Below are positions 8,178-56,619 of a stretch of 64,000 nt of DNA, piece after piece; position 1 is the first letter of the stretch; each line of letters starts with the position of its first letter. The stretch is from Candidatus Nomurabacteria bacterium (GTDB lineage Bacteria; Patescibacteriota; Patescibacteriia; HK-STAS-PATE-3): the NCBI GenBank assembly GCA_023898465.1, contig CP060223.1:800001-864000 (forward strand), read 5' to 3'. A model generated the notes under the pieces. It was not told the DNA's origin. It did no database searches and saw nothing but the letters and a program-made list of their open reading frames with translations. Both the position numbers and the translations under genes were made by a program.

Positions 8178-8195
8178 ACTATGCACCTTCACCTA

Positions 8196-8233
8196 GAACC
8201 AGCTGACTCCGGTCTCCTGGTTCTTTCTTTTTC
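8196..8233 (+). terminator. rho-independent terminator (gaaccag…ctggttc + TTTCTTTTTC)
   Basis: 7-bp stem, then T-run. Closes island 1. Confidence 0.55.
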
Positions 8234-8273
8234 TGTCACTCTGGACTTGTTCCGAAGTCTCCTAAACTCAAAA

Positions 8274-9110
8274 CTATTTCAATAACTTCGCCTGTTGCTG
8301 CAACTCCTGTATCCGCTTCCGTTCTTGAGTAGTGAAACCGTGCATATCCGTTAAGGTTAACAACTCCTGTATCGTAACCACTCCGATTCGGAAAAGCTTC
8401 GATTTCATACTCGAGTCTAAACTCATGAGAATGGTGATAGGATAGACTTTTGTCTGCTCAATAAGCTTTTGTAAACTTTGATCAGCCGGATGACCCCAGC
8501 TAAGAATGTGCACGTTTGCGCAACGGGCGTATTTCATTGCTTCGGTGGTACATTTCGTATTTGTAACTAGCCAGGCATGCTGGACATGCTTCTTAGGGGC
8601 CAGGCGCTGTTCATCTTCTTTGGCTTGGAAAGCTTTTCCAATGTCATCGAAGCGTGCCTTAATATAGAGCGCCACCTTTACATCAGTCTTCATGCCGCGT
8701 CGATTATGATACTTGCACTCAAAAAGATGCAGCTGACCATTCTTGCGGGCTAAAATATCAACCTCGTGTGAAACACAGAAGCCGCGAACATATTGATCAG
8801 TTTGCACGCTGTACCCTAAGGCACTCAACAAACGCGCGACGTATTGTTCAAAAGGAAACCCGGTCGGACCAAGATTCATTATCGCTCGTTTCAAACCATA
8901 ACGCATGGCCTGCTTGGTATTGAGCTGGGCTAGTCGACTTTTTGCATAGGAAAAAATCGCTTGCGTCGACTTATGGAGTTTTGGCTTTAAACTTATTTCC
9001 TCAGCCAAACCTCGGGCCACTGTACCCGGCACTCCAGAATTTTGTAAAGACTGAATAAACTTCTCTGGCTGAAAAATCTGGTATTCACCGGATGATTTAC
9101 GGATGCGCAT
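8274..9110 (-). CDS. ATP-cone domain fused to Mrr-like (PD-(D/E)xK) restriction endonuclease domain
   Basis: 278 aa. N-terminal ATP-cone-like MRIRKSSGEYQIFQPEKF. Central nuclease motif HEVDILARKNGQLHLFECKYH. TGcTACAAT extended -10 ends 6 nt before the ATG. Confidence 0.6.
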   Translation of the reverse strand: MRIRKSSGEYQIFQPEKFIQSLQNSGVPGTVARGLAEEISLKPKLHKSTQAIFSYAKSRLAQLNTKQAMRYGLKRAIMNLGPTGFPFEQYVARLLSALGYSVQTDQYVRGFCVSHEVDILARKNGQLHLFECKYHNRRGMKTDVKVALYIKARFDDIGKAFQAKEDEQRLAPKKHVQHAWLVTNTKCTTEAMKYARCANVHILSWGHPADQSLQKLIEQTKVYPITILMSLDSSMKSKLFRIGVVTIQELLTLTDMHGFTTQERKRIQELQQQAKLLK

Positions 9111-9225
9111 AGGTATATTGTAGCACGTACTTAGGGTATAGTCTTGACATTTCTATAAAAATCGCTAAGGTCAGACTGCTTTTGGAGCATTGACATCAAC
9201 CGCTAGAACAGAGGAGGAGGAGTAG

Positions 9226-9468
9226 ATGACGCTCGCAGCTACTGAACTTAGGCCTGGGATGACGGTGCGGAATCTGCGGAGCGGTCTCACCGCTACGGTC
9301 ACCGAACCGCTGAGGGTCACGGGCGATCCGCTGCACGTACACGTCAGGAGGACGATGGAGGGAGGCGAGAGCAACGGTAAGACCAAGTTGACCACCTGGA
9401 GTCTCGACAACGTCGAGATCGTGCCGGTGGCTCAGGAGCCTGTCGACAACGATCGGCAGGTCGGCTAG
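9226..9468 (+). CDS. hypothetical small protein (GC-rich islet)
   Basis: 80 aa. Strong SD GGAGGAGGAG. About 62% GC. Followed by a nested hairpin terminator. Confidence 0.4.
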   Translation: MTLAATELRPGMTVRNLRSGLTATVTEPLRVTGDPLHVHVRRTMEGGESNGKTKLTTWSLDNVEIVPVAQEPVDNDRQVG

Positions 9469-9477
9469 CCCTTCGCG

Positions 9478-9531
9478 CCCAATCCAAAAAATCCAGCTGA
9501 GCTGGACTAAGGATTGGGTGCTTTTTTTATT
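9478..9531. terminator. bidirectional nested-hairpin terminator (cccaatcc…ccagctgagctgg…ggattggg + T9)
   Basis: 8-bp outer stem with an inner palindrome. T-run on plus side, A-run on minus side. Sits between convergent genes. Confidence 0.55.
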
Positions 9532-10312
9532 TTGCTGGGGTCACTACCAACATGACCTTTTGCCCATGGTCAACATCCCCGCCATTCCAATCGTGAATGG
9601 CATTCATAAGCACACTCTCTTCATAGACGTAGTCAGCTCCGTTGCGCGTACCAGGATCATTGGTAATAAAATGCCCATCCTTTGTGTAGCCCTTCACTAC
9701 TAAGGCATGATAAATCGGACCTGGTGAAGTGAAGTTTGGATTACCTAACTGGCGACCAGCAGCTAATACAATAATTGGATGGCCTTGTGCAATCTCCTGC
9801 TTAATAGCAAGAGCAGTCACCGCATCGCCGGTACTCACCTCTACTTCATAACCCCATAGGTCGCGAATGAAGCGTGCCGTCTCTTCGCCGGTTGTATCCT
9901 GGTAAAAACCATAGTGCTGCTCCTCAAAATCTACAATCGCTAAAATGGAACGATCAGCGTCTTCTTTCGTAAGCGGCTCATCCTCCCAATAACGTTGTAC
10001 CATAAGCGCAGCAGTTTCTTCACAGGCTTCTTGGTATGGTAAATCCCAATTGGCAAAAGGCGCCTGAGATGAAAAAGGCACGTCTAAATTTATCTCGTCC
10101 GGCAAAGTAACGACTGTGTTTGTAATTGCCGTATTGGTAGTTGTGCTATTACTGTTTTCCACGCTCGTATTCACGACTGCATTTTTCGCAGTAGGCTCTG
10201 GTAACTCAGGTGTAGAGATCGAATCCCAAGTATCACGAATCCAGCCGCGCTGCCAATAGCCAAGCCCGAGTAAAAGCACTAACGCGATAATAATGATGAT
10301 TCCCTTTTTCAT
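9527..10312 (-). CDS. peptidase C39-like (YvpB-like) domain protein, N-terminal membrane anchor
   Basis: 261 aa. TM MKKGIIIIIALVLLLGLG. Conserved QEACEETAALMV Cys region and downstream His/Asp pattern of the Peptidase_C39_2 family. Confidence 0.5.
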   Translation of the reverse strand: MKKGIIIIIALVLLLGLGYWQRGWIRDTWDSISTPELPEPTAKNAVVNTSVENSNSTTTNTAITNTVVTLPDEINLDVPFSSQAPFANWDLPYQEACEETAALMVQRYWEDEPLTKEDADRSILAIVDFEEQHYGFYQDTTGEETARFIRDLWGYEVEVSTGDAVTALAIKQEIAQGHPIIVLAAGRQLGNPNFTSPGPIYHALVVKGYTKDGHFITNDPGTRNGADYVYEESVLMNAIHDWNGGDVDHGQKVMLVVTPAK

Positions 10313-13891: not shown

Positions 13892-13920
13892 TTGACCGCG
13901 CTTGACATCAGGTGTATACT
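13892..13920 (+). promoter_or_regulatory. promoter TTGACC-17-TATACT upstream of uvrA
   Basis: TTGACC 13892-13897, TATACT 13915-13920. No SD before the uvrA ATG. Confidence 0.4.
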
Positions 13921-13947
13921 GCTTGCGAGTTTTTGCCCGTACAAATT

Positions 13948-16839
13948 ATGGAAGATTCAATCCGAGTCAGGGGAGCCCGAGTACACAACCTGAAGAATCT
14001 CAGCGTTGAGATCAAACGTAATCAGCTTGTCGTGATTACCGGTCTTTCTGGTTCCGGCAAATCCTCGCTCGCTTTTGATACACTCTATGCCGAAGGTCAG
14101 CGTCGCTATGTTGAGTCTCTCTCAGCCTACGCTCGACAATTCCTCGGCCTGATGGATAAGCCGGATGTTGATAGCATCGATGGACTATCGCCGGCAATCG
14201 CCATTGACCAAAAATCAACCTCGCATAATCCCCGTTCAACTGTTGGTACAGTCACGGAAATTTATGACTACCTGCGTCTGCTCTATGCACGCATCGGACT
14301 TCCGCACTGTCCAAATTGTGGCAAGCCAATTACCAAGCAAACGATCGATCAAATTGTGAAGCAGGTACTAGCGCTACCAAAGAATACCAAAGTTGCAATT
14401 CTGGCACCGGTCATTCGCGATCAAAAAGGTGAGCACAAAAATGTACTAGCAGAAGCCCGGAAGGCTGGCTATGCCCGCGTCCGCTTCGATGGCACGCTCT
14501 ACTCAATTGAAGAGGCCGAAGACCTAGAAGTAGATAAAAAGAAGAAACACTCGGTTGAAATCACCGTTGATCGTTTGGTCATGGGTGTTGATGATCAGGA
14601 AAAAGGAAAAGCGGAAAAAACTCGCTTATATGATTCACTAGAAACCGCCCTCGACCTTGGTAACGGCATTGTCGTTATCCACGATATGGATAAAGCAGAG
14701 GATCGTCTTTTCAGCGAGCACTTTGCCTGCGCTGATTGTGGCATCAACTTGCCGGAAATTGAACCACGTAACTTCTCTTTTAACTCTCCGCACGGCGCTT
14801 GCCCTGACTGTACCGGACTCGGCACCAAGCTGGAAATTGACCCAGGCCTCGTCATCCCAAACAACCGACTCACCTTAGCGGAGGGAGCAATTCGACCCTG
14901 GTCACGCACCTCAGCCAACCAAACGTGGTACTTCCGAATCTTAGAGGCTGTAGCCAAGGCAAATAATTTCGACACAAATACACCGATTAAGGATTTACCA
15001 AAGAAAGCACTGGATATTGTCCTGTATGGCACGGGCGATAAAATGTTTGACGTCAACAATGCGAACGCTTCAGGCAAAGTTCGAGAATTTATGACCACTT
15101 TTGAAGGAGTGATTCCGAATCTCATGCGTCGCTATAAGGAAACCGAGTCAGAATATATCCGCAGTGAAATTGAACGCTATATGCGCGTTTTTCCTTGTCC
15201 TACCTGTCAGGGCAAGCGCCTCCGACCAGAAGTGCTAGGTATCACCGTGGCGGAAAAAAGCATTGCCGAGATAGTGCAAATGACTATTGAGCAATCAAAA
15301 GAATTTTTCACTGGTATCACAAATAACTCTGGTAAAAAGAAGACCGAGCTCAGCTTAAGCGAACGTGATAAAAAAATTGCCAGCCAGATTCTCAAAGAAA
15401 TTGTGGCACGACTCACCTTCCTCTCTGATGTCGGACTCGACTACCTCACGCTTGATCGCGCCGCCTCTACCCTAGCTGGTGGAGAAGCACAGCGCATCCG
15501 TTTGGCTACCCAAATTGGCTCATCCCTGGTTGGCGTTATTTACATTTTGGATGAACCATCCATTGGTCTGCATCAACGTGATAACGATAAGCTCATTGCC
15601 ACCCTCCAGCGACTCCGTGATCTTGGTAACACTGTTATCGTGGTTGAGCACGATGAAAATACCATCCGCGCGGCTGACGATGTGATTGACATTGGCCCAG
15701 GGGCTGGTGAGCACGGTGGTGCCGTAGTCGCGCAGGGAACAGCCAAGGAAATTGAAAAGGTGAAAGATTCCTTAACCGGACAATACCTCTCTGGCAAAAA
15801 GGCTATCCATATCCCTAAGGAATTTCGTAAAGGAAATGGCAAATCAATTGGTGTAAAAGGTGCCCAGGCTTTTAACTTGAAAAATGTTGACGTCACTATT
15901 CCTTTAGGCAAGTTCGTTTGCATTACTGGCGTGTCTGGATCAGGTAAGTCAACTTTAATGACTGACATCTTGGCCCGCGCGCTCAACCAGCACTTCTACA
16001 AGTCAAAAGATATTCCTGAGAAGCACGACAGCATTGAGGGCTTGGAAAATCTTGATAAAGTCATCACGATTGACCAATCACCGATCGGACGCACCCCTCG
16101 TTCAAATCCGGCAACCTACACCGGCGTCTTTACCTACATTCGCGACCTCTTTGCCCAAGTGCCGGAGGCGAAGATCCGCGGCTACAGCCCTGGTCGCTTC
16201 AGCTTCAACGTAAAAGGTGGGCGCTGTGAAGCCTGTGAGGGCGACGGGCTGACCAAGATCGAAATGCACTTCTTGCCTGACGTCTATGTTGAGTGTGAAG
16301 AATGTAAAGGAAAGCGCTACAACCCGCAGGCGCTGGAAATTCACTACAAAGGCAAAACTATTTCTGATGTGCTAGAAATGACTGTCGAAGAAGCTATGCG
16401 TTTCTTTGCCCACATTCCAGCAATCCATCAGAAGTTAAAAACCCTGCACGATGTCGGTCTGGGCTATGTCCACCTCGGCCAGTCAGCAACTACGCTATCA
16501 GGCGGTGAAGCACAACGTGTGAAACTTGCCACAGAATTATCTCGCCGCGCTACGGGTAAGACACTTTATATTCTCGATGAGCCAACTACTGGCCTCCACT
16601 TCCACGATGTACAATCACTGCTCAACGTTATTAATCAGTTGGTGGATAAGGGAAACAGCGTCCTCGTGATTGAGCATAACCTGGACATGATTAAGTCAGC
16701 TGACTGGATTGTTGATATGGGCCCAGAGGGTGGTGAAAAAGGTGGCACAGTAGTCGCTGAGGGTACTCCACGCGATGTGGCAACGGTAAAAGCCAGTTAC
16801 ACCGGCCAATACCTCAAGGACATGCTGAAGGACGCATAA
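13948..16839 (+). CDS. uvrA: excinuclease ABC subunit A (UvrA)
   Basis: Two ABC ATPase modules ([18 protein letters not shown]; LSGGE signatures) and zinc-finger Cys pairs. Start taken at MEDSIRV. Confidence 0.95.
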
Positions 16840-18557: not shown

Positions 18558-20042
<1,485 letters not shown>

Positions 20043-27136: not shown

Positions 27137-27511
27137 TTGATCACTCAAGTGCAAGAACAGATTGACTCCCTGAGTTCAGCTCTAGGGGTCGCGGATGAAG
27201 AGCAGCGTCAAAAGGTGGCGTCGATCGTACGCACCTGCAACGAATGGATGGACCTCATCGAGAGTGGAACCACCAAGGAGAGAGGAGATTCCATCGAGAT
27301 CAGTCTCCAGGGCCTAACCGAGGCCATCACTTGTCTCCGCGCCAGAATCCCGGAACTGGCAAAGAGGTCGAATCGCCGTCCCAGAGCGGTCCGGCTATCT
27401 CGCTTTCTGCGCCTCCGTACTACGAACGGCCAACTGATCGAAGCAATGTACAACGATGTGGCCTGTCTGATCAGACAAGCCAATCTGCCGAGTGCTTCTC
27501 TGGCCGCCTGA
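27137..27511 (+). CDS. hypothetical protein (GC-rich island)
   Basis: Probable TTG start after AAGGTAAGGAG. An alternative ATG at 27110 lacks an SD. About 58% GC. Confidence 0.35.
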   Translation: MITQVQEQIDSLSSALGVADEEQRQKVASIVRTCNEWMDLIESGTTKERGDSIEISLQGLTEAITCLRARIPELAKRSNRRPRAVRLSRFLRLRTTNGQLIEAMYNDVACLIRQANLPSASLAA

Positions 27512-27559
27512 AGCATAGCGGACATCAGCCATCCTGGTGTCCGCTTTTCTATCCGAAAG

Positions 27560-27591
27560 AAATGCCACCGCACGAGACGATGGCATTTTTG
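27560..27591 (+). terminator. hairpin terminator aaatgcca…tggcattt + TT
   Basis: 8-bp stem. Confidence 0.4.
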
Positions 27592-27908
27592 GGAAACGTA
27601 GACCCGTCCTTGTCTAGGCCCTGACCTGATCGATCAGCCGATGGTAGCTGAGCAACCTCCTGTGAAATCCGCGATCACCTCGCGAAGCTTCCCAGGTGAG
27701 ACCCCTCACAACCTTGTCGTTGCGATCCAGAATGGATCGCGTCCTCCCCGGCGTCATCCCTGACTTTGCCTTGGGCCTAGCGCTATTGGACTTGTTGGGC
27801 ATAGTCCCCAACCCCCATATGCTACCCATCAACCCTATTGTTGATGTTAGTATTAAAATAAACCAATCTTAGGAATTGGTAAAGTATTCACTTCCCACAG
27901 GAAAACGC

Positions 27909-34115: not shown

Positions 34116-35254
34116 CGTGCAGAAAGCTGCGCAAAAAGAAATGGAATAAGCAAAGTGAAACAAATAGTCGAAGCTATAATCACCGAATAAAGTCCAACAT
34201 CAATCAGGCCGTTATCAAAGAGTAGCTTCACAATAATAATGCTGGTGCTGAAACGAACAGATAGTCCTATACCGAGTAAAATAGCCCCCCGTCCACCAAA
34301 CTCCTTCTTGCCCATAACAATACTCGCCAGGAGCTTAGCCAGACCAGCCACTACTATAAGCGCAGCAATTTGCCAGAGATGTCCACCAACGTATTGCAAA
34401 TCTAGAGATGCGCCAACCCACACAAAAAAGATTGGAGCAAAGAAGCCATAGGCGATGGTGCGCAAATCAGTTTCAATAAACTTCAAGCGTGCAGTTGGGA
34501 TAAAATTACGTAGGGCCACACCGGCCAGCAAAGCACCTAGCGCAGTCGCCTCGGCAAAAGAACCAACTGCCAAGAAAAGGAAAAGACCAAACATGGTCAT
34601 GAGAAAAAGGGTTTCCACCTGAGAAAACGCGAACCGCTGGCGCTCTGCTCGCAAGTAAGAAAAAAGTGCGGTCAATCCAAATAAACCTAGGAGACCAAGG
34701 AAAACAACAGCAACGTGGACGGAGATATTTACCGCACTCGTACCAAGTAATAAAGATACGAAAATGAGACTGATAATTTCAACGATGTCATCTAGGGTTC
34801 CTATACCAATAATCGCCTGCCCGACTGGCGTACGAATAAGCTTAGAGGCATCAAGTATTGGCACTAGGATTGCCTCGCCGACTGTGGCAAAAGACAGACC
34901 AACCAAGATAGCGATATCCCATGAAACCTGAAAAAGGGTATGCACTAATATGCTGCCCAATAATGCCTCAAAGAGAATAATGACAAAAGCCGAGCTTGCT
35001 AAAAACGCTCCTTTCTTCCGCATGTCTTGTACATCCACCTCAAAACCAATGATGAAGAGTAGGAGGTACATACCTAATTGAGCCAGGAAGGAAAAAGTTT
35101 CTCCGTTGGTAATAGTGGAAAAAGGATTTCCTATGGCGAGTATTGTTCCAAGTATCAGCGCGGCAAAGACCCACGGCACTTTCACTCGCTCAATCAACCT
35201 CCCTACCAGGAGAGTGAACAAAAAGACGACGCTTAAAAAGAGATAAATACTCAT
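34088..35254 (-). CDS. monovalent cation:proton antiporter (CPA2/Kef-type)
   Basis: 388 aa. 11-12 TM. Na_H_exchanger-like pattern. Confidence 0.75.
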   Translation of the reverse strand: MSIYLFLSVVFLFTLLVGRLIERVKVPWVFAALILGTILAIGNPFSTITNGETFSFLAQLGMYLLLFIIGFEVDVQDMRKKGAFLASSAFVIILFEALLGSILVHTLFQVSWDIAILVGLSFATVGEAILVPILDASKLIRTPVGQAIIGIGTLDDIVEIISLIFVSLLLGTSAVNISVHVAVVFLGLLGLFGLTALFSYLRAERQRFAFSQVETLFLMTMFGLFLFLAVGSFAEATALGALLAGVALRNFIPTARLKFIETDLRTIAYGFFAPIFFVWVGASLDLQYVGGHLWQIAALIVVAGLAKLLASIVMGKKEFGGRGAILLGIGLSVRFSTSIIIVKLLFDNGLIDVGLYSVIIASTICFTLLIPFLFAQLSARWRNQLKTK

Positions 35255-35370
35255 TACTCTGTAGTATTGCGCGATTTATGCTTCAACGCAAACGGTATCT
35301 AGTCTCTTTACAAATTTTCCAGACTAGGTTACGATGCGATGCCGTTCTTTCCACCAAAGAGGAGATTCGC

Positions 35371-43249: not shown

Positions 43250-44468
43250 ATTCGCTTATCCCCGCGGTGGGGCTGAGCGACATATGCTCGACCTGATTAA
43301 AGTGCTGCAAGCCCATGGCCATGAGGTGTCGGTCTTTGCTATGCGTCATCCTGAGAATCTGCTCTGGCCTGATAGCGACCTCTTTGTCTCACAGGTCAAC
43401 TTTGAGCATCCACGTAGCTTTAGTGAAAAGTTGCGAGCTGCCGGACGAATGTTGTGGTCATTTGAGGCAGCGCGTAAATTCGGTGAACTGCTTGATCGAC
43501 GTCAACCTGATCTTGTGCACGTACACAATATCTATCATCAAATCTCGCCTTCAATATTACGTGAAGCAAAGAAGCGCGGCATACCGGTCGTCATGACTTT
43601 GCATGACTTCAAATTCATTGCGCCAAACTACTTACTATATGCCGATGGTAAAGTGAGTGAAGCTACTAAACCGAATAAATATTGGAAGCTCATCCCACAT
43701 CGGGAAATTAAACACTCCTTTGCTGCCTCATTACTTTGCGCTTTAGAAATGTATCTCCACAAAACGCTGCGGGTGTATGAAAAGTATGTTGATGTGTTTA
43801 TCGCACCAAGCCAATTCATGGCTGACAAAGTGCGTGAGTATGGCGTGCAAGCTAAAAGAGTTGAAGTGCTAGCAAACTTTATGCCTCAGCGCGACTTGCC
43901 AAGCTCGCAAGAGAAAGGCTATGCGCTTTTCTTCGGCCGCTTAGCAAAAGAAAAAGGTGTAGATGTGCTCATCGACGCCTGGCGCGAACTCAAAGACATC
44001 CCCCTGAAGATTGCCGGTACCGGACCGGAGGAATTAAAGCTGCGCCAACAAGCTGCTAGTGTTGCTGGTCATCAGATTAGCTTTGTTGGACATCAGAATG
44101 GTAAAGCTCTAGACAAATTAATTGCCGGCGCCCGTCTCATTGTGTTCCCTTCTCGTTGGTATGAAAACCAGCCCATGAGTTTAATTGAAGCATTTCGATT
44201 TCAGAAGCCGGTCATTGCCTCACGCCTAGGCGCCATCCCTGAACTCGTGCATAAAAACGACGGTGGGCGCTTAGTACCACCGAATGATTCCGGCTCTATT
44301 ACCGAAGCAGTCCGCGAGCTTTGGAATAATGCCGAGCTTCAACGCATGGGTGAATACAATTACCAGCGTAGTTTACTTTTTTCCAGCGAAGGGTATTATG
44401 AAAAATACCTATCGCTCTTTGATGAGATTAGTGACAAGTCTCAGTCTCGCACTGAAACTGCTCAGTAG
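43227..44468 (+). CDS. glycosyltransferase family 4
   Basis: Start taken at MKIVQVNKFAYPRGGAERH. C-terminal …FPSRWYENQPMSLIEAFRFQKPVIAS… GT4 E-x7-E region. Confidence 0.85.
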   Translation: MKIVQVNKFAYPRGGAERHMLDLIKVLQAHGHEVSVFAMRHPENLLWPDSDLFVSQVNFEHPRSFSEKLRAAGRMLWSFEAARKFGELLDRRQPDLVHVHNIYHQISPSILREAKKRGIPVVMTLHDFKFIAPNYLLYADGKVSEATKPNKYWKLIPHREIKHSFAASLLCALEMYLHKTLRVYEKYVDVFIAPSQFMADKVREYGVQAKRVEVLANFMPQRDLPSSQEKGYALFFGRLAKEKGVDVLIDAWRELKDIPLKIAGTGPEELKLRQQAASVAGHQISFVGHQNGKALDKLIAGARLIVFPSRWYENQPMSLIEAFRFQKPVIASRLGAIPELVHKNDGGRLVPPNDSGSITEAVRELWNNAELQRMGEYNYQRSLLFSSEGYYEKYLSLFDEISDKSQSRTETAQ

Positions 44469-44513
44469 TCTTGTCTTTCCGCACCTTACAGCACTCGCAA
44501 CCTTGGAGGGAGT

Positions 44514-44942: not shown

Positions 44943-45041
44943 CTTTTTCTTTTACCACGGCGAGGCAGAGAAGTCCCACCTATGTGTTTATTATTACCCA
45001 ATAGCCAAGGCGTCCCGGCCTTGGCAGTTTTTTTCTTTTAC
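44943..45041. repeat. REP-like palindromic element copy 1 (core gccaaggcgtcccggccttggc) with 13-nt flanking direct repeat tttttcttttacc
   Basis: About 85 nt shared with copies at 45881 and 48593. Internal inverted repeat gccaaggc/gccttggc. The same 13-mer occurs at 44945-44957 and 45028-45040. Confidence 0.5.
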
Positions 45042-45167: not shown

Positions 45168-45803
45168 ATGTGCGACTTGATCCGGGTATACTTCGACTGT
45201 ATGCGACACGGGGAGAGGGAGGGAGATCAACTCACCGCCCTCGGAACCAGGCAGGTCTCTGCCTCGGCTGAGGCCAACCTGGCTGGAACGCGCTATCTCT
45301 TGGCCTTCCACACAGGGATGACCCGCACTTACCAGACCGCCGAGACTATCCTTTCTACCCTGGAGGGGGCCGGCTCCTTGACCCCTCGAGCAGAAGAGGG
45401 CTTCGGCGTGGTTTGGGCACTGAATCAAAAGTGGCCTATCCAGACCGCCCAAGACCAGATCAAGAGTCTCGTAGCCAGCGGCGCTGCTGAGACTGCCGCT
45501 CTTTGGACCTCCTCCTGGCCACCCGCCCTCGCCATCCTTGGACGCTTCCTTGGCACGCTGGAGAAGTGGACAACCTATGCAGCCATGCGTGCTGCTGAAG
45601 ACGGATCACCGGTCGGTGATGGAGTCCGGTTCTTAGTGGCCAGCCACAGCCCCTGCGCTGAACTCGCCGCCCTCGATCCTTCCGCCACTCCGCGTCTCGG
45701 CCCGGCTGACGGTATCACCTACGAAATCGAGGTGGACATCAGAAACCTCGGGATAGTGATCACCTCCTCCGAGGTCTGGCGCTGCCCCGAAGGAGTCGAG
45801 TAG
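45168..45803 (+). CDS. histidine phosphatase superfamily (phosphoglycerate-mutase-like) protein
   Basis: RHGE catalytic motif in DCMRHGEREGDQLTALGTRQ. SD GAGGAGGGG. Flanked on both sides by REP-like copies. Confidence 0.55.
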   Translation: MCDLIRVYFDCMRHGEREGDQLTALGTRQVSASAEANLAGTRYLLAFHTGMTRTYQTAETILSTLEGAGSLTPRAEEGFGVVWALNQKWPIQTAQDQIKSLVASGAAETAALWTSSWPPALAILGRFLGTLEKWTTYAAMRAAEDGSPVGDGVRFLVASHSPCAELAALDPSATPRLGPADGITYEIEVDIRNLGIVITSSEVWRCPEGVE

Positions 45804-45880
45804 CTTTCCCGCTCTTTCGCCCTGAGACGCTCAGCGTCTTCACCCGGGCACCCGAAGCCGTAGACTTCTCCAGTCTGCGG

Positions 45881-45965
45881 CTTTTTTCTTTTACCACGGC
45901 GGGACAGAGACGCCCCTCCTATGTGCTTATTATTACCCCATAGCCAAGGCGTCTCGGCCTTGGCG
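45881..45965. repeat. REP-like palindromic element copy 2
   Basis: cttttttcttttaccacggcgggacagagacgcccctcctatgtgcttattattaccccatagccaaggcgtctcggccttggcgg. Confidence 0.5.
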
Positions 45966-46058
45966 GAGCTTATGAAGACTTGAAAAAAACACATGTTCGT
46001 GTATGATGGCCTCGATCACATAATGTACCTTGCAGATAACAAGTAGGAGGTATCAGAC

Positions 46059-48427: not shown

Positions 48428-48994
48428 TTATGTAAAACCTTTTTCCTCATATGCGTGATAAGAAGACCAATTCCAATCCTTTGGATCTTTTACCAAGCTA
48501 GCACGTACTGGATTGTAGTGGATATAATGAATGAGATGGTGGAGATATTGGTCAGTATCTACTACGCGGTCATAAAAAGAATCTTGCCATATCTTTTTCA
48601 TGCGACGGCGGGACAGAGACGCCCCGCCTATATGTTTATTATTACCCATAGCCAAGGCGTCTCGGCCTTGGCGGGGTATATCGGCGTCTCGGCCTTGGCG
48701 AGACTTATACATTTGTTGAGTCGTATAACTTTTAATACTATGCATCACCTCCGACACATTCTTCTTCCCTATTATCTCAAACAACACATGGATGTGATCT
48801 GGCATCACCACGTAGGCTAGCAGCCGTATCCAATGTTTCTTATGCAAGAAGAACAGAGTCTCAACGACAATCCTGGAGAGTTCTTTATTCAAGAATAGCT
48901 TTTTCCGTCGGTGGGTATTTGCGGTGACAAAATACACCCTTGTTTCAGCGTTGTAGGTACGACGAAGACGAGACATGAGGACACCTCGTGCCAC
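48428..48994 (-). mobile_element. REP-associated tyrosine transposase (RAYT; IS200/IS605-like Y1 HUH) with in-frame REP-like insertion between HUH and Tyr motifs
   Basis: HUH motif MPDHIHVLF. Catalytic Tyr motif HYIHYNPV. REP copy 3 (48593-48700) lies in-frame inside the ORF and encodes …RQGRDADIPRQGRDALAMGNNKHIGGASLSRR…. Confidence 0.65.
48593..48700. repeat. REP-like palindromic element copy 3 (with tandem duplication of ggcgtctcggccttggcg) embedded in the RAYT ORF
   Basis: Sequence shared with copies 1 and 2. The duplicated 18-mer lies at 48656-48673 and 48683-48700. Confidence 0.5.
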
Positions 48995-49039: not shown

Positions 49040-49624
49040 CTACCCATACTTCGCCAGAAGTAATCGGGCTGCCTCGCGAATATCTTCCACCCGGTAAAAG
49101 ATAAACTTACCTTGCGTGCTAATGCCCCATTCTAGTATTAATCCCTTCTTCGGCATACGGCACGCCAAGAGAATACGTTGTTTTTCAGCAGGGCTAAGAA
49201 ATTTTTTTAACCCAATGCTTTGGGTGAGTTTACCTTTTTGATAGGTGTAACTAGCTGTCACTTTCCCATAGCGCATGAGGTTCACAATTGGGCCACGAGT
49301 TGCTTCAATAACTACGCGATCACGCTCCAGTAAAATTGTGCCGCCTTTTTTCCATTTCCATGAAGGGTAGACAACAAACAAGGCGCGATGAGGGTGCTCG
49401 CGCTGCAGACGATCAACAGTGGCGGCAACTTTACTTGGTGCCACCCAATTCGCATACAAGTTTTTCCACGGACCACCGCGTACTTCCACAGTGCGAATTG
49501 TCCAGCCACGATATGCATCAATGTTTTGAATACCACGCAGCTCTTTTGAAGAACGCACAAATTGCCACTCAGGATGAGGTAGACCAGCTGCGTCTATTTT
49601 CTTTAGCCCTTGTAGGATGGTCAT
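49040..49624 (-). CDS. mini ATP-grasp protein resembling the N-terminal nucleotide-binding domain of PEP synthase/PPDK (PPDK_N-like fragment)
   Basis: 194 aa. KIDAAGLPHPEWQFV resembles the GLPVPPGFV loop. FVVYPSWKWKKGGTILLERDRVVIEATRG resembles the Mg/ATP-binding strand. 4-nt overlap with the upstream paralogue. Confidence 0.4.
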   Translation of the reverse strand: MTILQGLKKIDAAGLPHPEWQFVRSSKELRGIQNIDAYRGWTIRTVEVRGGPWKNLYANWVAPSKVAATVDRLQREHPHRALFVVYPSWKWKKGGTILLERDRVVIEATRGPIVNLMRYGKVTASYTYQKGKLTQSIGLKKFLSPAEKQRILLACRMPKKGLILEWGISTQGKFIFYRVEDIREAARLLLAKYG

Positions 49625-51231
49625 AACTTACGGACAATTCCTTTCGTTGCATCGACCTCCACTTGGTCACCGTCTTTCAATACTTTGGTAGCAATCTTTG
49701 TGCCAATGACGCAGGGGATTTTTAGCTCCCGAGAAACAATGGCTGCATGCGAAGTTACGCCACCCTGCTCGGTCACAATCGCTGCAGCTTTTTTCATCGC
49801 TGCTACAATGTCCGGGTCAGTAGCAATCGAAACAAGAATATCACCGCGTTGCATTTTTGCCATATCCTTTGGACGAATAATAATCTTAACTCGTCCAGTC
49901 GCTTTTCCTACACAACCTGTCTGACCATGAAGCTCTTCACTTGATTCGTGCTTCATAGACTGCAACTGCTTCTTCATTCTCTTTGCTGCAGCGCCTACGA
50001 GAATAGTATCCCTATTCTTTTCACTGATGTAGACGCATTCTTTCACTCGTTGTTTCAGCATCGATCGAGATAAATGACCACGAGTTAAGGCGGCATGAAC
50101 TTCTTTAGGCAACATGAAGCGCATTTCTTTGAGTGAAATGTGGAGACGCCGGGCAATTTCTTTTTGCAAAAATTCCATTTTATAAAGTGCATATATCTGC
50201 GCAAAGCGACGATAAATTTTTGTTACCATGAAATCACCAAAGGCTAAGAAAAGCGTTTTCCATTTTCCGCTAATTCGGTATTGTCGCAGGTAGCGTTCAC
50301 GCAAACTATTTGCAGTCTGTAATTTCTTCTTTTCCTCTTTGAGCAACGCGGCGATGTCAGACTTCTGACCAATAAGTTTCACCAGCTCTTTTAGGTAGTA
50401 CGTAAAATGCGCAGTTTCACCAATCCACATCCTCGGTACATAGAAGTAGCTCGCATAATGCTTTTGTATACGTTTCAGTATTTCCGGACTTATCGCATCT
50501 ATCAATTGGTCAGCTCGCTGCTCTAGACCATGCTCAAATTCTTCGGTATGCGTTTGCCAGCCATAGGGTCCTGCTTCTTTATTTAAGAAAGTAGAATATA
50601 TATCAGCGAATAATTTTTTCTGTTTGGCATTTTTTTGTATGGCAAAAGCAATGTGCAAAAAATCTTCACGTTCTTTCTGAATCAGTGAAATGCTTCGTGG
50701 ATGAGTGAGCGCGACAAACACCTCATTTACTTTTGCTTCAGGTACTCCTTGCGTTGCTAAATACTGCTTCATCCGATCAGTGAGGTTGTTGTGAAACATA
50801 TCTGCAGCAACCGGTATCCAACACCACTGATAGTACTCCGTGTGCAAACGATCATGCTCAGTATATAATTGCCACAACTTAGTATTACTCTGCTTCTCTA
50901 AGCCCGTCTCGGGTAGCTTTTCAGTAAAGCGTCGTAAGCGATCTGCTTGATGCAGTATCTCTTTATTTACTTGTGTGGCAAAGGCAGGCTCTTGAATAAA
51001 ACGATTAACAATGTGATCGCCCTCGGTCTTCGCATCATCGTGATCATAATAAAACCAGAGATGGTAGCCCTGGTAATAAGTAGCCACTCGTTGATACGCT
51101 CGTCCATTCGGTTTTGCAAACTCATTAGTAAAACATGACAACCAGATTTGCGAAAAAGCAAAATCAATATCTGGAATATCCTCAGCTAGCATCCAATTGA
51201 TACTTTGCTTTTGTATTTTAGGAGAGCTCAT
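49621..51231 (-). CDS. PEP-utilising-enzyme mobile (phosphohistidine swivel) domain protein, paralogue 1
   Basis: 536 aa. C-terminus GGVTSHAAIVSRELKIPCVIGTKIATKVLKDGDQVEVDATKGIV. N-terminal 430 aa of unknown fold. Confidence 0.6.
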   Translation of the reverse strand: MSSPKIQKQSINWMLAEDIPDIDFAFSQIWLSCFTNEFAKPNGRAYQRVATYYQGYHLWFYYDHDDAKTEGDHIVNRFIQEPAFATQVNKEILHQADRLRRFTEKLPETGLEKQSNTKLWQLYTEHDRLHTEYYQWCWIPVAADMFHNNLTDRMKQYLATQGVPEAKVNEVFVALTHPRSISLIQKEREDFLHIAFAIQKNAKQKKLFADIYSTFLNKEAGPYGWQTHTEEFEHGLEQRADQLIDAISPEILKRIQKHYASYFYVPRMWIGETAHFTYYLKELVKLIGQKSDIAALLKEEKKKLQTANSLRERYLRQYRISGKWKTLFLAFGDFMVTKIYRRFAQIYALYKMEFLQKEIARRLHISLKEMRFMLPKEVHAALTRGHLSRSMLKQRVKECVYISEKNRDTILVGAAAKRMKKQLQSMKHESSEELHGQTGCVGKATGRVKIIIRPKDMAKMQRGDILVSIATDPDIVAAMKKAAAIVTEQGGVTSHAAIVSRELKIPCVIGTKIATKVLKDGDQVEVDATKGIVRKL

Positions 51232-52331
51232 GCTCCTAATCTTCGCACAATTCCCTGGTTCGCGTCTACTTCTACGAGATCGCCGCTTTGTAGACTACTG
51301 GTAGCAAATTTTGTACCAATAACGCAAGGAACTTTCAACTCCCGGGCTACGATTGAAGCGTGACTAGTCACTCCACCTTCATCAGTAACAATCGCCCCAG
51401 CTCGCTTCATGGCTGGTATATAACGCGGATCAGTCATTGAGGTTACTAAAATTTCGCCCTGGCGTAGTTTTGTAGCATCGGCGATTTTTTGAATTAAACG
51501 CACTTTGCCTTTTACCTTGCCAGGGAAAGCCACGTTGCCCTTGAGTAGCCCCTTCGTTGCTTTCGGTAATGACAAACCAAAGCGTTTCAATGCGCTAGCT
51601 GAATTTGAGTACGCATATACGTTTTTGCCTTGCTTCAACACAAAACGTTTTCTTCGATTACGTAGCCTTTTTATCGACGGGAGTTTTCCAGAATTTAAGT
51701 ACTCAGTAAATTCACTAAGTAGCAAATACTCCAAAACCTCTATTGCGAGCTTTTCAGACTTTTCAATTTGACGCAGTAATCTTTTCTGCAAATCAATACC
51801 TACCCGGTAAAAGTCAGCTCCTTGTGCACGGCCTTGTAAGAAGAGTTTCAGGACTGCGGGAGTAACTTGATCTGAAACAAACTCTGGCACTTCGATACAA
51901 GCAACTAAGAACGGTAGAGCATCGTGAAAATATTCATGCAATTGAAGTATCGCCGCTTTCGGATCAGCGTGCTCCTGTTGTACAAATATATTATACGAGC
52001 GAAGTAAGGCATCGTGCTGCTTTTTTTGCTGCTTCAGTTTTGCCAGCGTACCATGTGTTTTTACCCAACCTTGCGCTGCGCCTTGTAAATCTTCATCCGC
52101 CATAAAGTGCCATAAAACACCATTCTCAACATACACATGGATTGGGCGAATCTGATGCGAAAAAAAATCTCGTGAAGCTTTATTAAGAAATGCTTCAATA
52201 ACTACTGAGGTTGCTAATACAGTATAATCTCTTTGATGTGGGGTATAGTGAAGCTTCATAGCTTTTACTCTAGCACATAATTCAGCACTCTTATCAAGAA
52301 AGAGGCGGCAGTTCATATTGACTGCCGCCAT
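51228..52331 (-). CDS. PEP-utilising-enzyme mobile domain protein, paralogue 2 (shorter N-terminal region)
   Basis: 367 aa. C-terminus GGVTSHASIVARELKVPCVIGTKFATSSLQSGDLVEVDANQGIV. Confidence 0.6.
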   Translation of the reverse strand: MAAVNMNCRLFLDKSAELCARVKAMKLHYTPHQRDYTVLATSVVIEAFLNKASRDFFSHQIRPIHVYVENGVLWHFMADEDLQGAAQGWVKTHGTLAKLKQQKKQHDALLRSYNIFVQQEHADPKAAILQLHEYFHDALPFLVACIEVPEFVSDQVTPAVLKLFLQGRAQGADFYRVGIDLQKRLLRQIEKSEKLAIEVLEYLLLSEFTEYLNSGKLPSIKRLRNRRKRFVLKQGKNVYAYSNSASALKRFGLSLPKATKGLLKGNVAFPGKVKGKVRLIQKIADATKLRQGEILVTSMTDPRYIPAMKRAGAIVTDEGGVTSHASIVARELKVPCVIGTKFATSSLQSGDLVEVDANQGIVRRLGA

Positions 52332-52661
52332 GTAGACGCGAGCCCCACAGAGCTCTTTCCCTAGGTCTGTCTACCTGACCGAGTTCGCCCAAAGACGATC
52401 TCCTGCTGTTTACCTCTTTCGAGGTGGCTTGGACTTGCTCCGCATGAGGGGACAGCAGTTATTCCTCGCAACGGGGTCCCACACCCGAGACTTCCGGTTG
52501 GCCGTATCCGTTGCAGCTTCTTGAAGAACAATGCGGAGTCACCGCGAAGTCTCGATTAGGACAATGCCACCCGCTTCTTCATGAGAGAAACCTCCCTTCC
52601 ATCAAAAAGCCATGGCATTAAAAATAATACCACGCTGTACTTATACTGGCGAGCAATTTTT
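52332..52661. ncRNA. 330-nt ORF-free, GC-rich, highly structured spacer (candidate structured RNA of unknown class)
   Basis: Several nested helices: ctgctgt…acagcag, gcaacgg…ccgttgc, cgagacttc…gaagtctcg (pseudoknot-compatible). No ORF on either strand. Confidence 0.25.
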
Positions 52662-54227
52662 TTACAACTTTCTGACTAAACCCTTGGTAGCATCCACTTC
52701 CACCTTGTCACCATCCTTCAAAATCTTATTCGCTACCTTCGTCCCTACTACGCAGGGCACACCAAGCTCGCGCGAGACAATAGCCGCATGTGAAGTCAAA
52801 CCTCCGGCGTTGGTCACGATTGCAGCGGCTAGCTTCATTGCTGGTACCAGACTGGGATAGGTTGTCTCAGAAACCAAAATATCACCTTTTTTCATTTTTG
52901 GAATATCCGCCGGCACCTCAATAATTTTTACCGTACCAGAAGCAGCTCCCGGAGAAGCGCATGAACCCGTTAGCTCACTTGCCTCGGTGGTAATCAAGGT
53001 ATCCTCTTTAGGAATTTCTTTCATGAACTTCTTTGCCTTCTGACCAGTCAAAACGATATATTGCTTCTTATCGCAATACGCCACTGTCTCCCGAGTTCGC
53101 GCCAGCAGCTCTTTCATAGTCGGGATCGACTTCCCTTGGAGCAAATCCTCAATCTCCCATGAGTTCAGGGCTCGCACAGTTTCCAAAGTCAGCTTATGTC
53201 GCTGAGCAATTTCACGGAAGAATGGTTCATAGCAGTACATACCATGATAGAGTGCGCCTTTTCGAAATTCCTTTATGTACACTATTTCTTGTCCCATGCG
53301 GATGAGCTGCCATATATTGCCTTGGAGGTGTAGAGATTTTTTTAATCGAGCCTGTTTTTGCTTCAGGAGCCTTTCCTTCACCTTCATATCAGCCAAAATC
53401 TGTTTGGGTGACTCACCGCTCTTTAGTAATTCCCTCCAACGAGTGAGGAAGTAGCGAAAGGAATAAGCTGGCCCCTTATACGCGTAGGGAATCCATCGCC
53501 ATTTCTCATAGTGCGCTCGCAGTAAAGCAGCTACTTTTTGATCCACTTCTGCTAATCCCTTTTCGGCCTTTGCGATGGGCGAACGAAGTAGGTGATTTCG
53601 CACCTTAGCAGAGCGCCGAAGCTGATCAGTAATCTGCAAAAACTCTCTTTCCTCCTGCGCAGCAAAACTCAAGCGGGGTGGGCTAGTAAGTAAACTAAAT
53701 ATTTCCGGCAAGGTTGCTGAGTCACCATAACAATCAATTTGTTTCTTGAGCGCTGCTTCTATACCTGTTGACACGCGGGCCTGATCAGCATCAGCCAACC
53801 AAGTGACCGCCGCACCGACCCCGTGGGAAAGTACATGCCAGCGTAAGACCTTACGAAACTCTCGAAGTAACTGTACATCAGTCATCTCACGGATTGGCAG
53901 TGCATATAAATTCCGAGAAGCCTGCATGAAGTTGATTGACCAATCCTCAACCTGCTTCAAGGTCTTTAATCCCCATTGTGGCTTTTGCAACATCTTCTGC
54001 GATAAGCCATCGGCCTGGGTATCAAATTCAGATCGCCGAAACCACATCTGAGAAAAGTCACCTTTGTAGTAGGTAAAGTACTCACTCAGGTGTCCGCCGA
54101 GTCCCATTCGCTTCCATTCCAAAAGAAAAAAGCGAATCGGCGTCCCCATCATAAAAATAGTATTTTCAGTTATTTCAGCTGGGACAAACCACTTGTCACT
54201 TTGCTTTTTTATGGCCTTTTTACCCAT
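52662..54227 (-). CDS. PEP-utilising-enzyme mobile domain protein, paralogue 3
   Basis: 521 aa. C-terminus GGLTSHAAIVSRELGVPCVVGTKVANKILKDGDKVEVDATKGLV. N-terminal region collinear with paralogue 1. Confidence 0.6.
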   Translation of the reverse strand: MGKKAIKKQSDKWFVPAEITENTIFMMGTPIRFFLLEWKRMGLGGHLSEYFTYYKGDFSQMWFRRSEFDTQADGLSQKMLQKPQWGLKTLKQVEDWSINFMQASRNLYALPIREMTDVQLLREFRKVLRWHVLSHGVGAAVTWLADADQARVSTGIEAALKKQIDCYGDSATLPEIFSLLTSPPRLSFAAQEEREFLQITDQLRRSAKVRNHLLRSPIAKAEKGLAEVDQKVAALLRAHYEKWRWIPYAYKGPAYSFRYFLTRWRELLKSGESPKQILADMKVKERLLKQKQARLKKSLHLQGNIWQLIRMGQEIVYIKEFRKGALYHGMYCYEPFFREIAQRHKLTLETVRALNSWEIEDLLQGKSIPTMKELLARTRETVAYCDKKQYIVLTGQKAKKFMKEIPKEDTLITTEASELTGSCASPGAASGTVKIIEVPADIPKMKKGDILVSETTYPSLVPAMKLAAAIVTNAGGLTSHAAIVSRELGVPCVVGTKVANKILKDGDKVEVDATKGLVRKL

Positions 54228-54640: not shown

Positions 54641-55321
54641 ATGGCGAATATCGTCGTCTTTGATCCGATCCGTGAACATTTCAGTGACTACATGATTGGG
54701 CTAGCCAGTCATCAGGTTATCGTGAGAAATACGGTCGAGGACGTCAATGGGACGCTCCGATCCTTCTCACCCGACCTGATCCTGGTAGCTGAATCAGAGC
54801 AGTCAGCTGCCGTGATCGCGGCCGTGCAACGGAGTGATCGACGCATACAAGCGCCAACACTCCTTATCCCTGCATCACTCGAAGGACCTGATGACCAGCG
54901 ATGGCAACAGAGCCGTCAGCTCGGCGTCGCGGGATGGATCCCTCGACCTCAGCAACGAGGCTTCAAGTCACTCCTGGCTGAAGACTGGCGACGTAATATC
55001 GTCAGTCTCATGCTCTGGCTATGCAATCAGTTGCACCGAGAGCAACCACTGAGTGTGTGGTTCCGAGAACATCAAAGCGTCGTGGCTATGGTGGGCCAAG
55101 AAACCTATCATCGCCTCATCACCGGCTCATCCATCCAGTATGCACCCGAAGAATATCGTCGACTCCAGAGGACACTGGCAATCTGGGGAGTACGCTATCC
55201 GCTGGATCGCTATCTCCAGGCTGTCGCTCTTGCAGGACGCAAGGCAGAGGCACAGAGACTCTCAGATCGCGTGCTTACAAACATGGCGAGGCGCATGCTT
55301 TCGTCTGAAGCACAAGGCTGA
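54641..55321 (+). CDS. pseudo-receiver (REC-like) domain protein, paralogue A (GC-rich island)
   Basis: SD AAGGGAGG. IVVFDP…PDLILVAESEQ…TLLIPAS…GWIPRP follows CheY topology, but the phospho-acceptor position is Ala and the conserved Lys is Arg. Confidence 0.4.
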   Translation: MANIVVFDPIREHFSDYMIGLASHQVIVRNTVEDVNGTLRSFSPDLILVAESEQSAAVIAAVQRSDRRIQAPTLLIPASLEGPDDQRWQQSRQLGVAGWIPRPQQRGFKSLLAEDWRRNIVSLMLWLCNQLHREQPLSVWFREHQSVVAMVGQETYHRLITGSSIQYAPEEYRRLQRTLAIWGVRYPLDRYLQAVALAGRKAEAQRLSDRVLTNMARRMLSSEAQG

Positions 55322-55352
55322 CTTCTACCATTCCTGCAAGGGAGGTTCTGAA

Positions 55353-56072
55353 ATGTCGCACATCGTGATCCTCGACCAAGACCCGATCCGACAGCTGTGG
55401 TATCAATCCGCGCTGCCGGGTCACGTCATCTCCTTCGTGGAGACCGCCCTCGGAGCGATTCGATTGGTGCAGCAGGTTCCCACCGCTGCCATCATTGCCG
55501 AGTACTTCGATGGGTCTGGCACTCGGCTCCTGGAGGAGCTCGATCGCCTGGTCCGGAACTGTCGCTTCGCCGCCCCGCCAGTCTACCTGACCGGCACCAT
55601 CACTATGCTGGACAACACGATGGAGAAGGCCGTGCAGCTCGCGCAGAATCGTGGAGCTCAGGACTTCATCCCGCATCCGATCAGTCGTGAGCGCTTCCGG
55701 GAACGGCTGGCCGACGTGCTCGAACAAGACAGAGGAGGTCGTGTCGTCGGACACATCACCTTTTGTGAGGCACCGCCGGTCACGACCTCGGAACTCGTCG
55801 ACCTGACCTATGAAATCCCGGAGGCGCGCGACCTGATCAACGCAACGATCGGGATGCGCACCTTCTCCAGCATGCTGAATCGAGCTCTGGCTGTGGAAGG
55901 ACACGGACCCGCCCAGATCGTCTGTGCGGAAATCGGTGTCTGGGCTACGGAAGGAATTCCCACGCTCACCGCTGCTGAGTTCTCGGCTGAGCTCGGCGAT
56001 AAGGAGAGAACGGCCTGTCAGGATATTCTCTTCGAGATCGCCCACTCCCTGCTCTTTGACCGCGCTGCCTAG
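55353..56072 (+). CDS. pseudo-receiver (REC-like) domain protein, paralogue B
   Basis: SD AAGGGAGG. IVILDQDP…PTAAIIAEYFDGSGTRLLEEL…VYLTGT…GAQDFIPHPISRERFRERLADVL follows REC topology. Acceptor position is Ala. Terminator 56083-56118. Confidence 0.4.
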   Translation: MSHIVILDQDPIRQLWYQSALPGHVISFVETALGAIRLVQQVPTAAIIAEYFDGSGTRLLEELDRLVRNCRFAAPPVYLTGTITMLDNTMEKAVQLAQNRGAQDFIPHPISRERFRERLADVLEQDRGGRVVGHITFCEAPPVTTSELVDLTYEIPEARDLINATIGMRTFSSMLNRALAVEGHGPAQIVCAEIGVWATEGIPTLTAAEFSAELGDKERTACQDILFEIAHSLLFDRAA

Positions 56073-56183
56073 CGCAACCCGAGGCGTCTACTTTCCCCAA
56101 GTAGGCGCCTTTCTTCTTGACTTTTTTATCTAAGTGGATAAACATGCCCACGGACACTGTTCGACAAACCATAGGAGGCGCAC

Positions 56184-56542: not shown

Positions 56543-56619
56543 GCCGCCATCGTCTAGTCTGGTCAGGACGCCAGGTTTTCATCCTGGTAACAGGGGTTCG
56601 AATCCCCTTGGCGGTACCA
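56543..56619 (+). tRNA. tRNA-Glu (anticodon UUC), CCA encoded
   Basis: Acceptor gccgcca/tggcggt. Anticodon stem ccagg/cctgg with loop ttTTCat. T-arm agggg-ttcgaat-cccct. 3' ACCA. Confidence 0.85.

Follow-up and report, generated by a model that had tools for sequence, protein, structure and literature searches.

A non-coding gap among PEP-utiliser paralogues

The 64-kb stretch of DNA analysed here (64,000 nt, hereafter the window) belongs to a Candidatus Nomurabacteria genome of about 1.08 Mb (Patescibacteria, the candidate phyla radiation or CPR), and it also holds a bacterial 16S rRNA gene. Our subject is a spacer inside a cluster of phosphoenolpyruvate (PEP)-utiliser paralogues. As shown by the list of open reading frames (ORFs), the genes around this spacer, p1, p2 and p3, are all co-directional on the - strand, and the Pfam search showed that all three end with a PEP-utilizers swivel domain (PF00391). 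The upstream gene p1 occupies 52662-54227 and encodes 521 aa (PF00391, E=1.2e-25). It is followed across the spacer by the short-form paralogue p2 (51228-52259, 343 aa) and then by p3 (49621-51231, 536 aa), and a fourth gene of the cluster, p4, lies behind p3.

The limits of the spacer depend on the start of p2. The mechanical ORF for this gene, 51228-52331 (367 codons), carries a spurious N-terminal extension of 24 codons, and the Logan gene calls for p2 (367 aa) share the same over-extension. The p2 protein is 100% identical to the 343-aa NCBI protein P0001 ('MAG: hypothetical protein H6760_04230'), and the alignment showed that 11 other members of the family (333-358 aa, 38-44% identical) begin at or near M25 with the consensus MKL.Y.KHQRDYT. 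Because the NCBI protein starts at M25 and the family members align from or near it, the real start of p2 is placed at 52259, and the non-coding gap therefore extends over 52260-52661, 402 nt. The gap of the original prediction is thus real and lies on the strand of the flanking genes, but its size of 330 nt was too small. The accompanying statement that most genes of this genome overlap or sit less than 60 nt apart was too strong, as about 20 stretches of more than 150 nt in the 64 kb contain no ORF of at least 110 aa. By the same alignment, p2 is a complete member of a short-form family of ~342 aa and not a truncated paralogue. This annotation correction, namely the p2 start, the 402-nt non-coding gap and two terminators described below, is the main value of the analysis at present.

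The composition of the spacer was then compared with its surroundings. The G+C content is 52% over 52332-52661 and reaches 55.5-57% only in the core 200-nt windows, so that the predicted value of about 55% holds for the core and not for the whole 330 nt. The flanking paralogues have 36-47% G+C, the mean of the window is 48.3% (sd 4.7), and about 20 other stretches exceed 54%. It had also been claimed that no ORF above 40 codons is present. A TTG-initiated ORF of 56 codons does exist at 52361-52531 on the - strand; nevertheless, the codon score was -0.29 to -0.47 in all six frames of the spacer, against +0.27±0.11 for real genes read in frame. A Pfam search of the open frames of the spacer gave no match. 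Recoding of UGA as a sense codon was considered and dropped, for the gap has stops of all three kinds and the genome uses all three. These results showed that the spacer is non-coding.

Promoter-like and terminator-like signals and the predicted fold

On its - strand the gap has two hairpins that resemble terminators. The terminator scan found the first, T1, directly after p1 at 52601-52634 (CGTGGTATTA-TTTT-TAATGCCATG, then GCTTTTTGAT). It is weak: its hairpin (52634-52611) has 10 pairs, only 3 of them G-C, and is followed by GCUUUUUGAU. The second, T2, at 52295-52329 (GGCGGCAGT-CAATATGA-ACTGCCGCC, then TCTTTCTTG; pair probability 0.90), resembles a strong intrinsic terminator, with nine perfect pairs in the hairpin 52329-52304, 7 of them G-C, followed by UCUUUCUUG. 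T2 lies inside the spurious p2 extension and therefore falls in non-coding DNA once the start is corrected to 52259. Among 32 terminator-like sites listed for the 20 kb around it, T2 comes third. The top-listed sites look real, because five of the first eight closely follow (≤50 nt) an ORF on the same strand. T2 is preceded by 330 nt without coding sequence, making it a good terminator that lacks a gene to terminate.

A candidate promoter of the insert was found on the - strand at 52624-52652, consisting of TCGCCA, 17 nt and a TG-extended TATTAT (TGGTATTAT), which gives 9/12 consensus matches plus the TG. Its -10 element sits in the loop and stem of T1, and a transcript starting near 52618 would therefore be without the 5' arm of T1. 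An ATG 5 nt past this -10 opens a 20-codon frame (52556-52618, - strand; MPWLFDGREVSLMKKRVALS by frame translation), which could speculatively be a leaderless ORF. Inside it, GGGAGG followed after 8 nt by an ATG (at 52582) opens the final 8 codons. Since 12 of the 28 GGAGG+ATG sites in the window open short ORFs only, this motif lends the 20-codon ORF little weight.

A candidate leaderless promoter of p2, read from the sequence, directly follows T2 on the same strand (52267-52297: TTGATA, 19 nt, TG-C-TAGAGT (TGCTAGAGT), with the ATG at 52259 starting 7 nt further on), and T2 itself lies 36 nt before this ATG. The -10 element TAGAGT is also predicted before the tRNA-Glu gene of the window, and p1 carries a leaderless-type promoter too (TGGTATAAT, 8 nt, ATG). 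Extended -10 motifs (TGnTAnnnT) stand 5-9 nt before the ATG in 4/43 long ORFs compared with 0.7% of all ATGs, and 16 strict motifs occur in the window where ~6 are expected; positions of the extended -10 promoter motif are 54244, 16849, 10330, 9125, 12927 and 52275. A Shine-Dalgarno-like 4-mer precedes only 10 of 38 long ORFs. It seems from these counts that many mRNAs of this genome are leaderless, through extended -10 promoters near the ATG. The site at 12927 (- strand) is a near-perfect promoter with a 38-codon ORF beginning 5 nt past it.

The inverted-repeat list confirmed that all four predicted helices exist at their places: CTGCTGT/ACAGCAG (52403-09 and 52452-58), GCAACGG/CCGTTGC (52468-74 and 52508-14), CGAGACTTC/GAAGTCTCG (52486-94 and 52546-54) and GTAGAC/GTCTAC (52332-37 and 52372-77). 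The spacing within the first measures 42 nt between the arms, where 45 nt had been given, and the coordinates bear out that the third crosses the second. In total, 52332-52661 contains 6 perfect inverted repeats of at least 7 nt, compared with 2.3±1.5 in shuffles (2% of which reach 6), and 52296-52617 contains 8, compared with 2.55±1.6 (0.5% reach 8). Genomic windows of 330 nt have 3.0±1.75 such repeats, with a maximum of 9. The enrichment over shuffles is real but modest. The z-score of the minimum free energy was -2.6 on the - strand and -1.9 on the + strand, with further runs at -1.9 to -2.4, and the - strand fold is 19 kcal/mol more stable than that of the + strand. In 48 background windows of the same genome the z-score had a mean of -1.22, an sd of 1.63 and a 10th percentile of -3.8. 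Of the description 'highly structured', what survives is a modest enrichment of inverted repeats, while the folding energy is not distinctive against the genome background.

Pair probabilities were taken from the partition function of the spacer RNA. Only four elements of the fold are well determined, all on the - strand: a hairpin at 52610-52573, an 87-nt domain at 52562-52476, a hairpin at 52402-52381, and T2. The first, H1 (52573-52610), pairs GCUUUUU with AAGAAGC around inner AUGG/UCAU and AGGGA/UCUCU helices, with probabilities of 0.99, 0.80 and 0.66, and is present in the minimum free energy structure. The long hairpin domain (52476-52562) is the best-determined part, in which GUCCUA/UGGGAC, UCGAGACUUC/GAAGUCUCGG (the 9-bp helix named above, inverted repeat I5) and CGGU/ACCG have probabilities of 0.89, 0.96 and 0.89 and enclose a loop of ~42 nt. 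An alternative helix from the stem list, UGCAACGG/CCGUUGCG (52467-52515, inverted repeat I18), crosses the 10-bp helix of this domain in an H-type pseudoknot topology; the crossing is sterically possible, and the complementarity itself is its one support. The small stable hairpin GAG-UCGUC...GGCGA-CUC (52381-52402) has a probability of 0.99-1.00.

The remaining helices are less certain. CUGCUGU/ACAGCAG (52403-52458, inverted repeat I17) has probabilities of 0.71 and 0.47, and encloses a CCUC-GAAA-GAGG tetraloop hairpin (52412-52425) together with GGAGCAAGUCCAAG (52428-52441), a string that resembles conserved region III (CR-III) of RNase P RNA. GUAGAC/GUCUAC (52332-52374, inverted repeat I12), enclosing a GAGCUC-UGUG-GGGCUC hairpin, has a probability of ~0.5. 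Three alternative pairings were also seen: 52451-52459 (ACUGCUGUC) with the 5' arm of T2 over 9 bp, which is found in 5% of shuffles; the predicted 5' end of the RNA, CAUGGCUUUU, with the first 10 nt of a leaderless p2 message, AAAAGCUAUG; and the 3' arm of T1 with 52562-52570.

Relatives, known RNA classes and the possible nature of the insert

In two Logan assemblies (L001-L003) the spacer is 100% identical, and the 11.4 kb of flanks differ at 3 positions. The organism is carried by the metagenomes SRR12358675 and SRR23493594. Blastn and nhmmer searches with the spacer against five GTDB relatives (L004-L008), whose p1 proteins are 41-51% identical, found no similarity. In L004 the p1 homologue is separated by a 12-nt gap from a 345-aa p2-like gene, and in L007 and L008 it runs directly into the p3 homologue. 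The p2 homologues of three other genomes (P0005, P0006, P0013) lie 0-73 nt behind the preceding gene. The spacer is absent both from L004-L008 and from the loci of the p2 homologues. The closest p2 homologue among 5.8 billion proteins is 45% identical, and the species has no close sequenced relative. Because of the 12-nt p1/p2-like gap in L004 and the direct p1-p3 junction in L007 and L008, the most fitting view of the spacer is that of a lineage-specific insertion, which the relatives checked do not have.

Searches for copies elsewhere were negative. Blastn of the spacer against phage and plasmid collections gave no match, and against the window it found only itself; the spacer belongs to none of the window's repeat families. 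A covariance model (R1) of the 87-nt hairpin domain, run over the window and eight related loci, L004-L011 (143 kb), returned the domain itself only. In a scan of JGI metagenomes with six degenerate peptides (the longest open frame serving as a proxy for the DNA), the single match among those listed, L133, was an unrelated gene, which makes for a weak negative. A 14-mer scan of viral contigs gave chance matches only, and a 27-nt similarity between the first bases of the spacer and 15361-15387 lies inside a 975-aa ORF (13912-16839) and was set aside as chance.

Known RNA classes were searched with Rfam 15 (4227 models). At the gathering score, the whole window gave only the 16S rRNA, the tRNA-Glu and a hairpin at 56083-56109, with no match in the spacer; at E≤5, again nothing fell in the spacer. 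Searches at E≤10 of 601 nt and of 336 nt gave only potC, sau-5971, ToxI and EF3314 at E 1.4-6, far under their cut-offs. ARAGORN found the tRNA-Glu as the only match in the window and no tmRNA. The proposed Rfam/Infernal check, now run, placed the spacer in no family at the gathering score or at E≤10. By eye, tmRNA, SRP RNA, 6S RNA and T-box did not fit, nor did a group I intron (P3/P7 topology), group II domain V, a CsrB-like GGA sponge or a GNRA tetraloop-receptor.

These observations are consistent with a non-coding insertion of ~390 nt between co-directional paralogues that would act as its own small - strand transcription unit, giving an orphan RNA of ~320 nt or else a p1 message with a long structured 3' tail. 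We give this reading a probability of about 0.4. Transcription of p1 would end at the weak terminator T1, and the extended -10 promoter buried in T1 would start a transcript near 52618. The product, a G+C-enriched RNA ~320 nt long, would fold into a few stable hairpins, of which the 87-nt domain at 52476-52562 is the best determined, and its 3' end would be set by T2, the strong intrinsic terminator (52329-52304 and the U-tract, ~52296). The leaderless promoter lying between T2 and the p2 ATG (52259) would then restart transcription for p2-p3-p4. Since transcripts of p1 that read on through the weak T1 would stop at T2 as well, the same RNA could also be made as an extended 3' tail of p1. The most economical role would be to uncouple p1 from p2-p4 transcription; the RNA might also be a small regulatory RNA, its 5' end being complementary to the p2 message start. 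We infer the transcription of the insert, its start point and any activity from the DNA alone.

What argues for such a transcript is that the spacer has its own promoter-like site and a hairpin like a Rho-independent terminator on one strand of non-coding DNA, both at the level of consensus matches. The use of extended -10 promoters in this genome, the enrichment of inverted repeats, the raised core G+C, the greater stability of the - strand fold and the absence of the spacer between the corresponding genes of relatives speak for it too. Like orphan intergenic small RNA genes, it combines a same-strand promoter-like site and a strong, U-tract-bearing terminator hairpin with no coding sequence before it, and it shares with them a length of a few hundred nucleotides, a G+C content above that of its neighbours and a narrow phylogenetic distribution. 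Unlike them, it is known from sequence alone and without homologues, at ~320 nt it exceeds most base-pairing small RNAs, and it may contain a 20-codon ORF. Several points weigh against the orphan RNA or 3' tail. The fold z-score of the spacer is ordinary for this genome, not clearly below the background. The three alternative pairings are each at chance level (p ~0.05) and were all spotted post hoc. The insert promoter is a 9/12 consensus match, and its -10 TATTAT is looser than the strict motif at validated starts. The Logan copies say nothing on constraint, because the spacer is identical in them and the flanks differ at 3 positions only. No search found a diverged homologue of the spacer, hence there is no covariation support. 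The suggestion of a structured non-coding RNA is no more than possible: promoter-like and terminator-like signals lie on the right strand, while a homologue is missing and the fold energy is not above background.

A more ambitious version, in which a lineage-restricted structured RNA of ~300 nt with the long hairpin domain, possibly an H-type pseudoknot and perhaps a dual function through the 20-codon leaderless ORF would regulate the adjacent leaderless PEP-utiliser operon, is improbable. If the RNA were transcribed and functional, it would be among very few candidate regulatory RNAs described in CPR/Patescibacteria and an example of how tandem paralogues are insulated or regulated in reduced, seemingly leaderless-rich genomes. 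For now, the element is known from one species and lacks comparative support.

Nearly as likely as the orphan RNA or 3' tail, though still doubtful, is an inert relic, that is, the leftover, decayed past recognition, of an old insertion (for instance a lost small gene or mobile element) in a cluster that is a hot spot for insertions, with T2 as the terminator that the lost gene left behind and the other hairpins due to chance. The absence of the spacer from the relatives checked, the lack of a homologue in any search, a fold z-score within the genome background and a G+C content unlike that of the neighbouring genes all fit such a relic. Related clusters also accept foreign genes: a PhdYeFM/ParE toxin-antitoxin pair interrupts the PEP-utiliser cluster of L011, and a transposase gene follows p4 here. 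On the other hand, no frame retains any coding signal or protein similarity, inverted repeats are enriched over shuffles, and the promoter, the terminator and the p2 promoter are coherently arranged on one strand. Furthermore, a genome of ~1.08 Mb would not be expected to retain 400 nt of junk for long.

A cis-acting, riboswitch-like leader or attenuator of p2-p4 is unlikely. Here transcription would start in T1 and T2 would be regulated, with 52451-52459 pairing either with 52403-52409 or, as an antiterminator, with the 5' arm of T2, and the short ORF could couple translation to the decision. Like attenuation leaders and riboswitches, the spacer is a structured stretch with an intrinsic terminator shortly before a start codon, 36 nt in this case, and with a possible alternative pairing to the 5' arm of the terminator (the 9-bp complementarity, at a level reached by 5% of shuffles); the strong Shine-Dalgarno-like GGGAGG 8 nt before an ATG also speaks for this reading. 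However, it matches no curated class, with no riboswitch, T-box or leader family at E≤10 in Rfam, and it is not conserved upstream of p2 homologues, which have gaps of 0-73 nt elsewhere and of 12 nt in L004. Moreover, a promoter-like site belonging to p2 itself lies beyond T2, and if p2 uses this site, T2 lies outside the p2 mRNA, which counts against a riboswitch or leader. The antiterminator would also have to close a 121-nt loop and outcompete the local 9-bp G+C hairpin, and the short ORF has the weakness already described for GGAGG+ATG sites. The earlier suggestion of a riboswitch or leader for the downstream paralogue is thus disfavoured.

It is very unlikely that the spacer is a decayed gene, either a fourth PEP-utiliser paralogue or a PPDK_N partner gene. 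The spacer and p2 together span 1434 nt, near the length of a full paralogue, and a PPDK_N gene lies directly upstream of the p2 homologue in L010, with another in the L011 cluster. Against a decayed paralogue, p2 is a complete member of its ~342-aa family, Pfam found nothing in the open frames, and all six frames are non-coding by codon score. Tblastn with 125 PEP-utiliser proteins, the check for frame-shifted similarity that had been proposed, gave scattered noise on both strands at inconsistent positions with no collinear match (lowest E 0.003, in a database of 416 nt). Noise was likewise all that came from two PPDK_N proteins and a 567-aa helix-turn-helix/PEP-utiliser protein of related loci. 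These results do not support the idea of a remnant of a fourth, decayed paralogue.

Equally small is the chance that the spacer is a very divergent essential RNA of a known class, most plausibly RNase P RNA. CPR members of this class are divergent and often missed at default Rfam thresholds: 10 of 35 complete CPR genomes needed thresholds of ~5 bits, and some CPR RNase P RNAs are without P12-P14, P18 and the UGG motif (Lui et al. 2021, PMC8172020). The host group, the size of ~300 nt, the invisibility at default thresholds, the CR-III-like GGAGCAAGUCCAAG and a J18/2-like CCUAG-GGAAAG (both by eye against the consensus) are shared with these divergent RNAs (PMC8172020). Rfam found no RNase P RNA elsewhere in the 64-kb window, but the window is ~6% of the genome, so the absence of a second rnpB from it means little. 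No RNase P RNA class matched the 336 nt at E≤10, and nhmmer with the RF00010 consensus and E. coli rnpB as queries matched the CR-III-like 20-mer only, at E=45 in the window, which is no better than for unrelated sites. The CR-I-like AGGGAAAGAGCUCUGUGGGGC sits 3' of the CR-III-like string, which is the wrong order. In manual threading, a P4 helix, which needs CR-I (GAGGAAAGUCCGGGC) just 5' of P5 and CR-V (ACAGAACCCGGCUUA) close to the 3' end, was not placeable: the sole P5/P7-like pairing, 52531-52538 with 52438-52445, has no complementary P4 partner adjoining it, and an alternative P4, 52565-52572 with 52303-52310, would lie 26 nt from P5 and consume the 3' arm of T2. The spacer thus differs from the divergent CPR RNAs (PMC8172020) in lacking a placeable P4 or CR-I/CR-V core, in motif order and in its noise-level similarity. 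A circularly permuted RNase P RNA was dropped, since again no P4 could be placed.

Least probable of all is a cluster of palindromes of the repetitive extragenic palindromic (REP) or bacterial interspersed mosaic element (BIME) type moved by a REP-associated tyrosine transposase (RAYT) whose gene lies 3.3 kb from the spacer: the spacer shares with such elements its intergenic position, its wealth of G+C-rich palindromes, the nearby RAYT gene (48428-48976; NF047646.1, 124 bits against a cut-off of 80) and a palindrome-bearing 80-nt repeat family in the vicinity, whereas REPs are repeated and no part of the spacer recurs within the 64 kb (of ~1.08 Mb), its hairpins are unlike each other and unlike the GCCAAGGCGTCYCGGCCTTGGC repeat that flanks RAYT, and T2 has no sequence in common with the 17 strong hairpins of the window.

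Other features of the window and of related clusters

The RAYT gene is the gene that follows p4 on the - strand. Near it, a repeat of ~80 nt ending in the palindrome GCCAAGGCGTCYCGGCCTTGGC occurs at 44944-45025 and 45883-45964, in both cases intergenic and directly after a terminator hairpin. A third copy at 48592-48708, with a 27-nt tandem, lies within the RAYT ORF (aa ~89-128). The repeat and the transposase would form a REP-like family, or one like miniature inverted-repeat transposable elements, in a CPR genome.

Clusters of 3-6 tandem PEP-utiliser swivel-domain paralogues were also seen in related genomes (L010, L011, L006), often with a separate PPDK_N (ATP-grasp) gene; coordinates are 1892-2839 in L010 and 7410-8399 and 5285-5785 in L011. 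Such sets in CPR, expanded and split, may be called 'PEP synthase-like'.

Several background windows fold far better than the spacer (z -3.8 to -4.8), at about 6701-7030, 9301-9630, 27501-27830 and 45701-46030, and ORF-poor stretches of 400-1260 nt lie at 7446-8273, 9111-9526, 27512-27908, 34164-35277 and 43250-44513. These may hold small genes or structured RNAs that deserve attention more than the spacer does.

The same-strain Logan contig matches the window only up to 56611, inside the tRNA-Glu gene (56543-56619), and beyond the tRNA the assemblies differ (L001 1-733), pointing to a variable region or island next to this gene. Two + strand genes at 54641-56072 (226 and 239 aa) have ~56-64% G+C in this 48% G+C genome, and no Pfam, NCBIfam or PADLOC match was obtained for either. 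They are followed by the terminator hairpin at 56083-56109, which Rfam mislabels as weev_FSE.

Finally, the 16S rRNA gene (18559-20042, - strand) carries CAGCAGCAGCGGUAAUAC in place of the CAGCAGCCGCGGUAAUAC of the Rfam bacterial 16S consensus, within the 515F primer region. Mismatches in this region are known for CPR bacteria.

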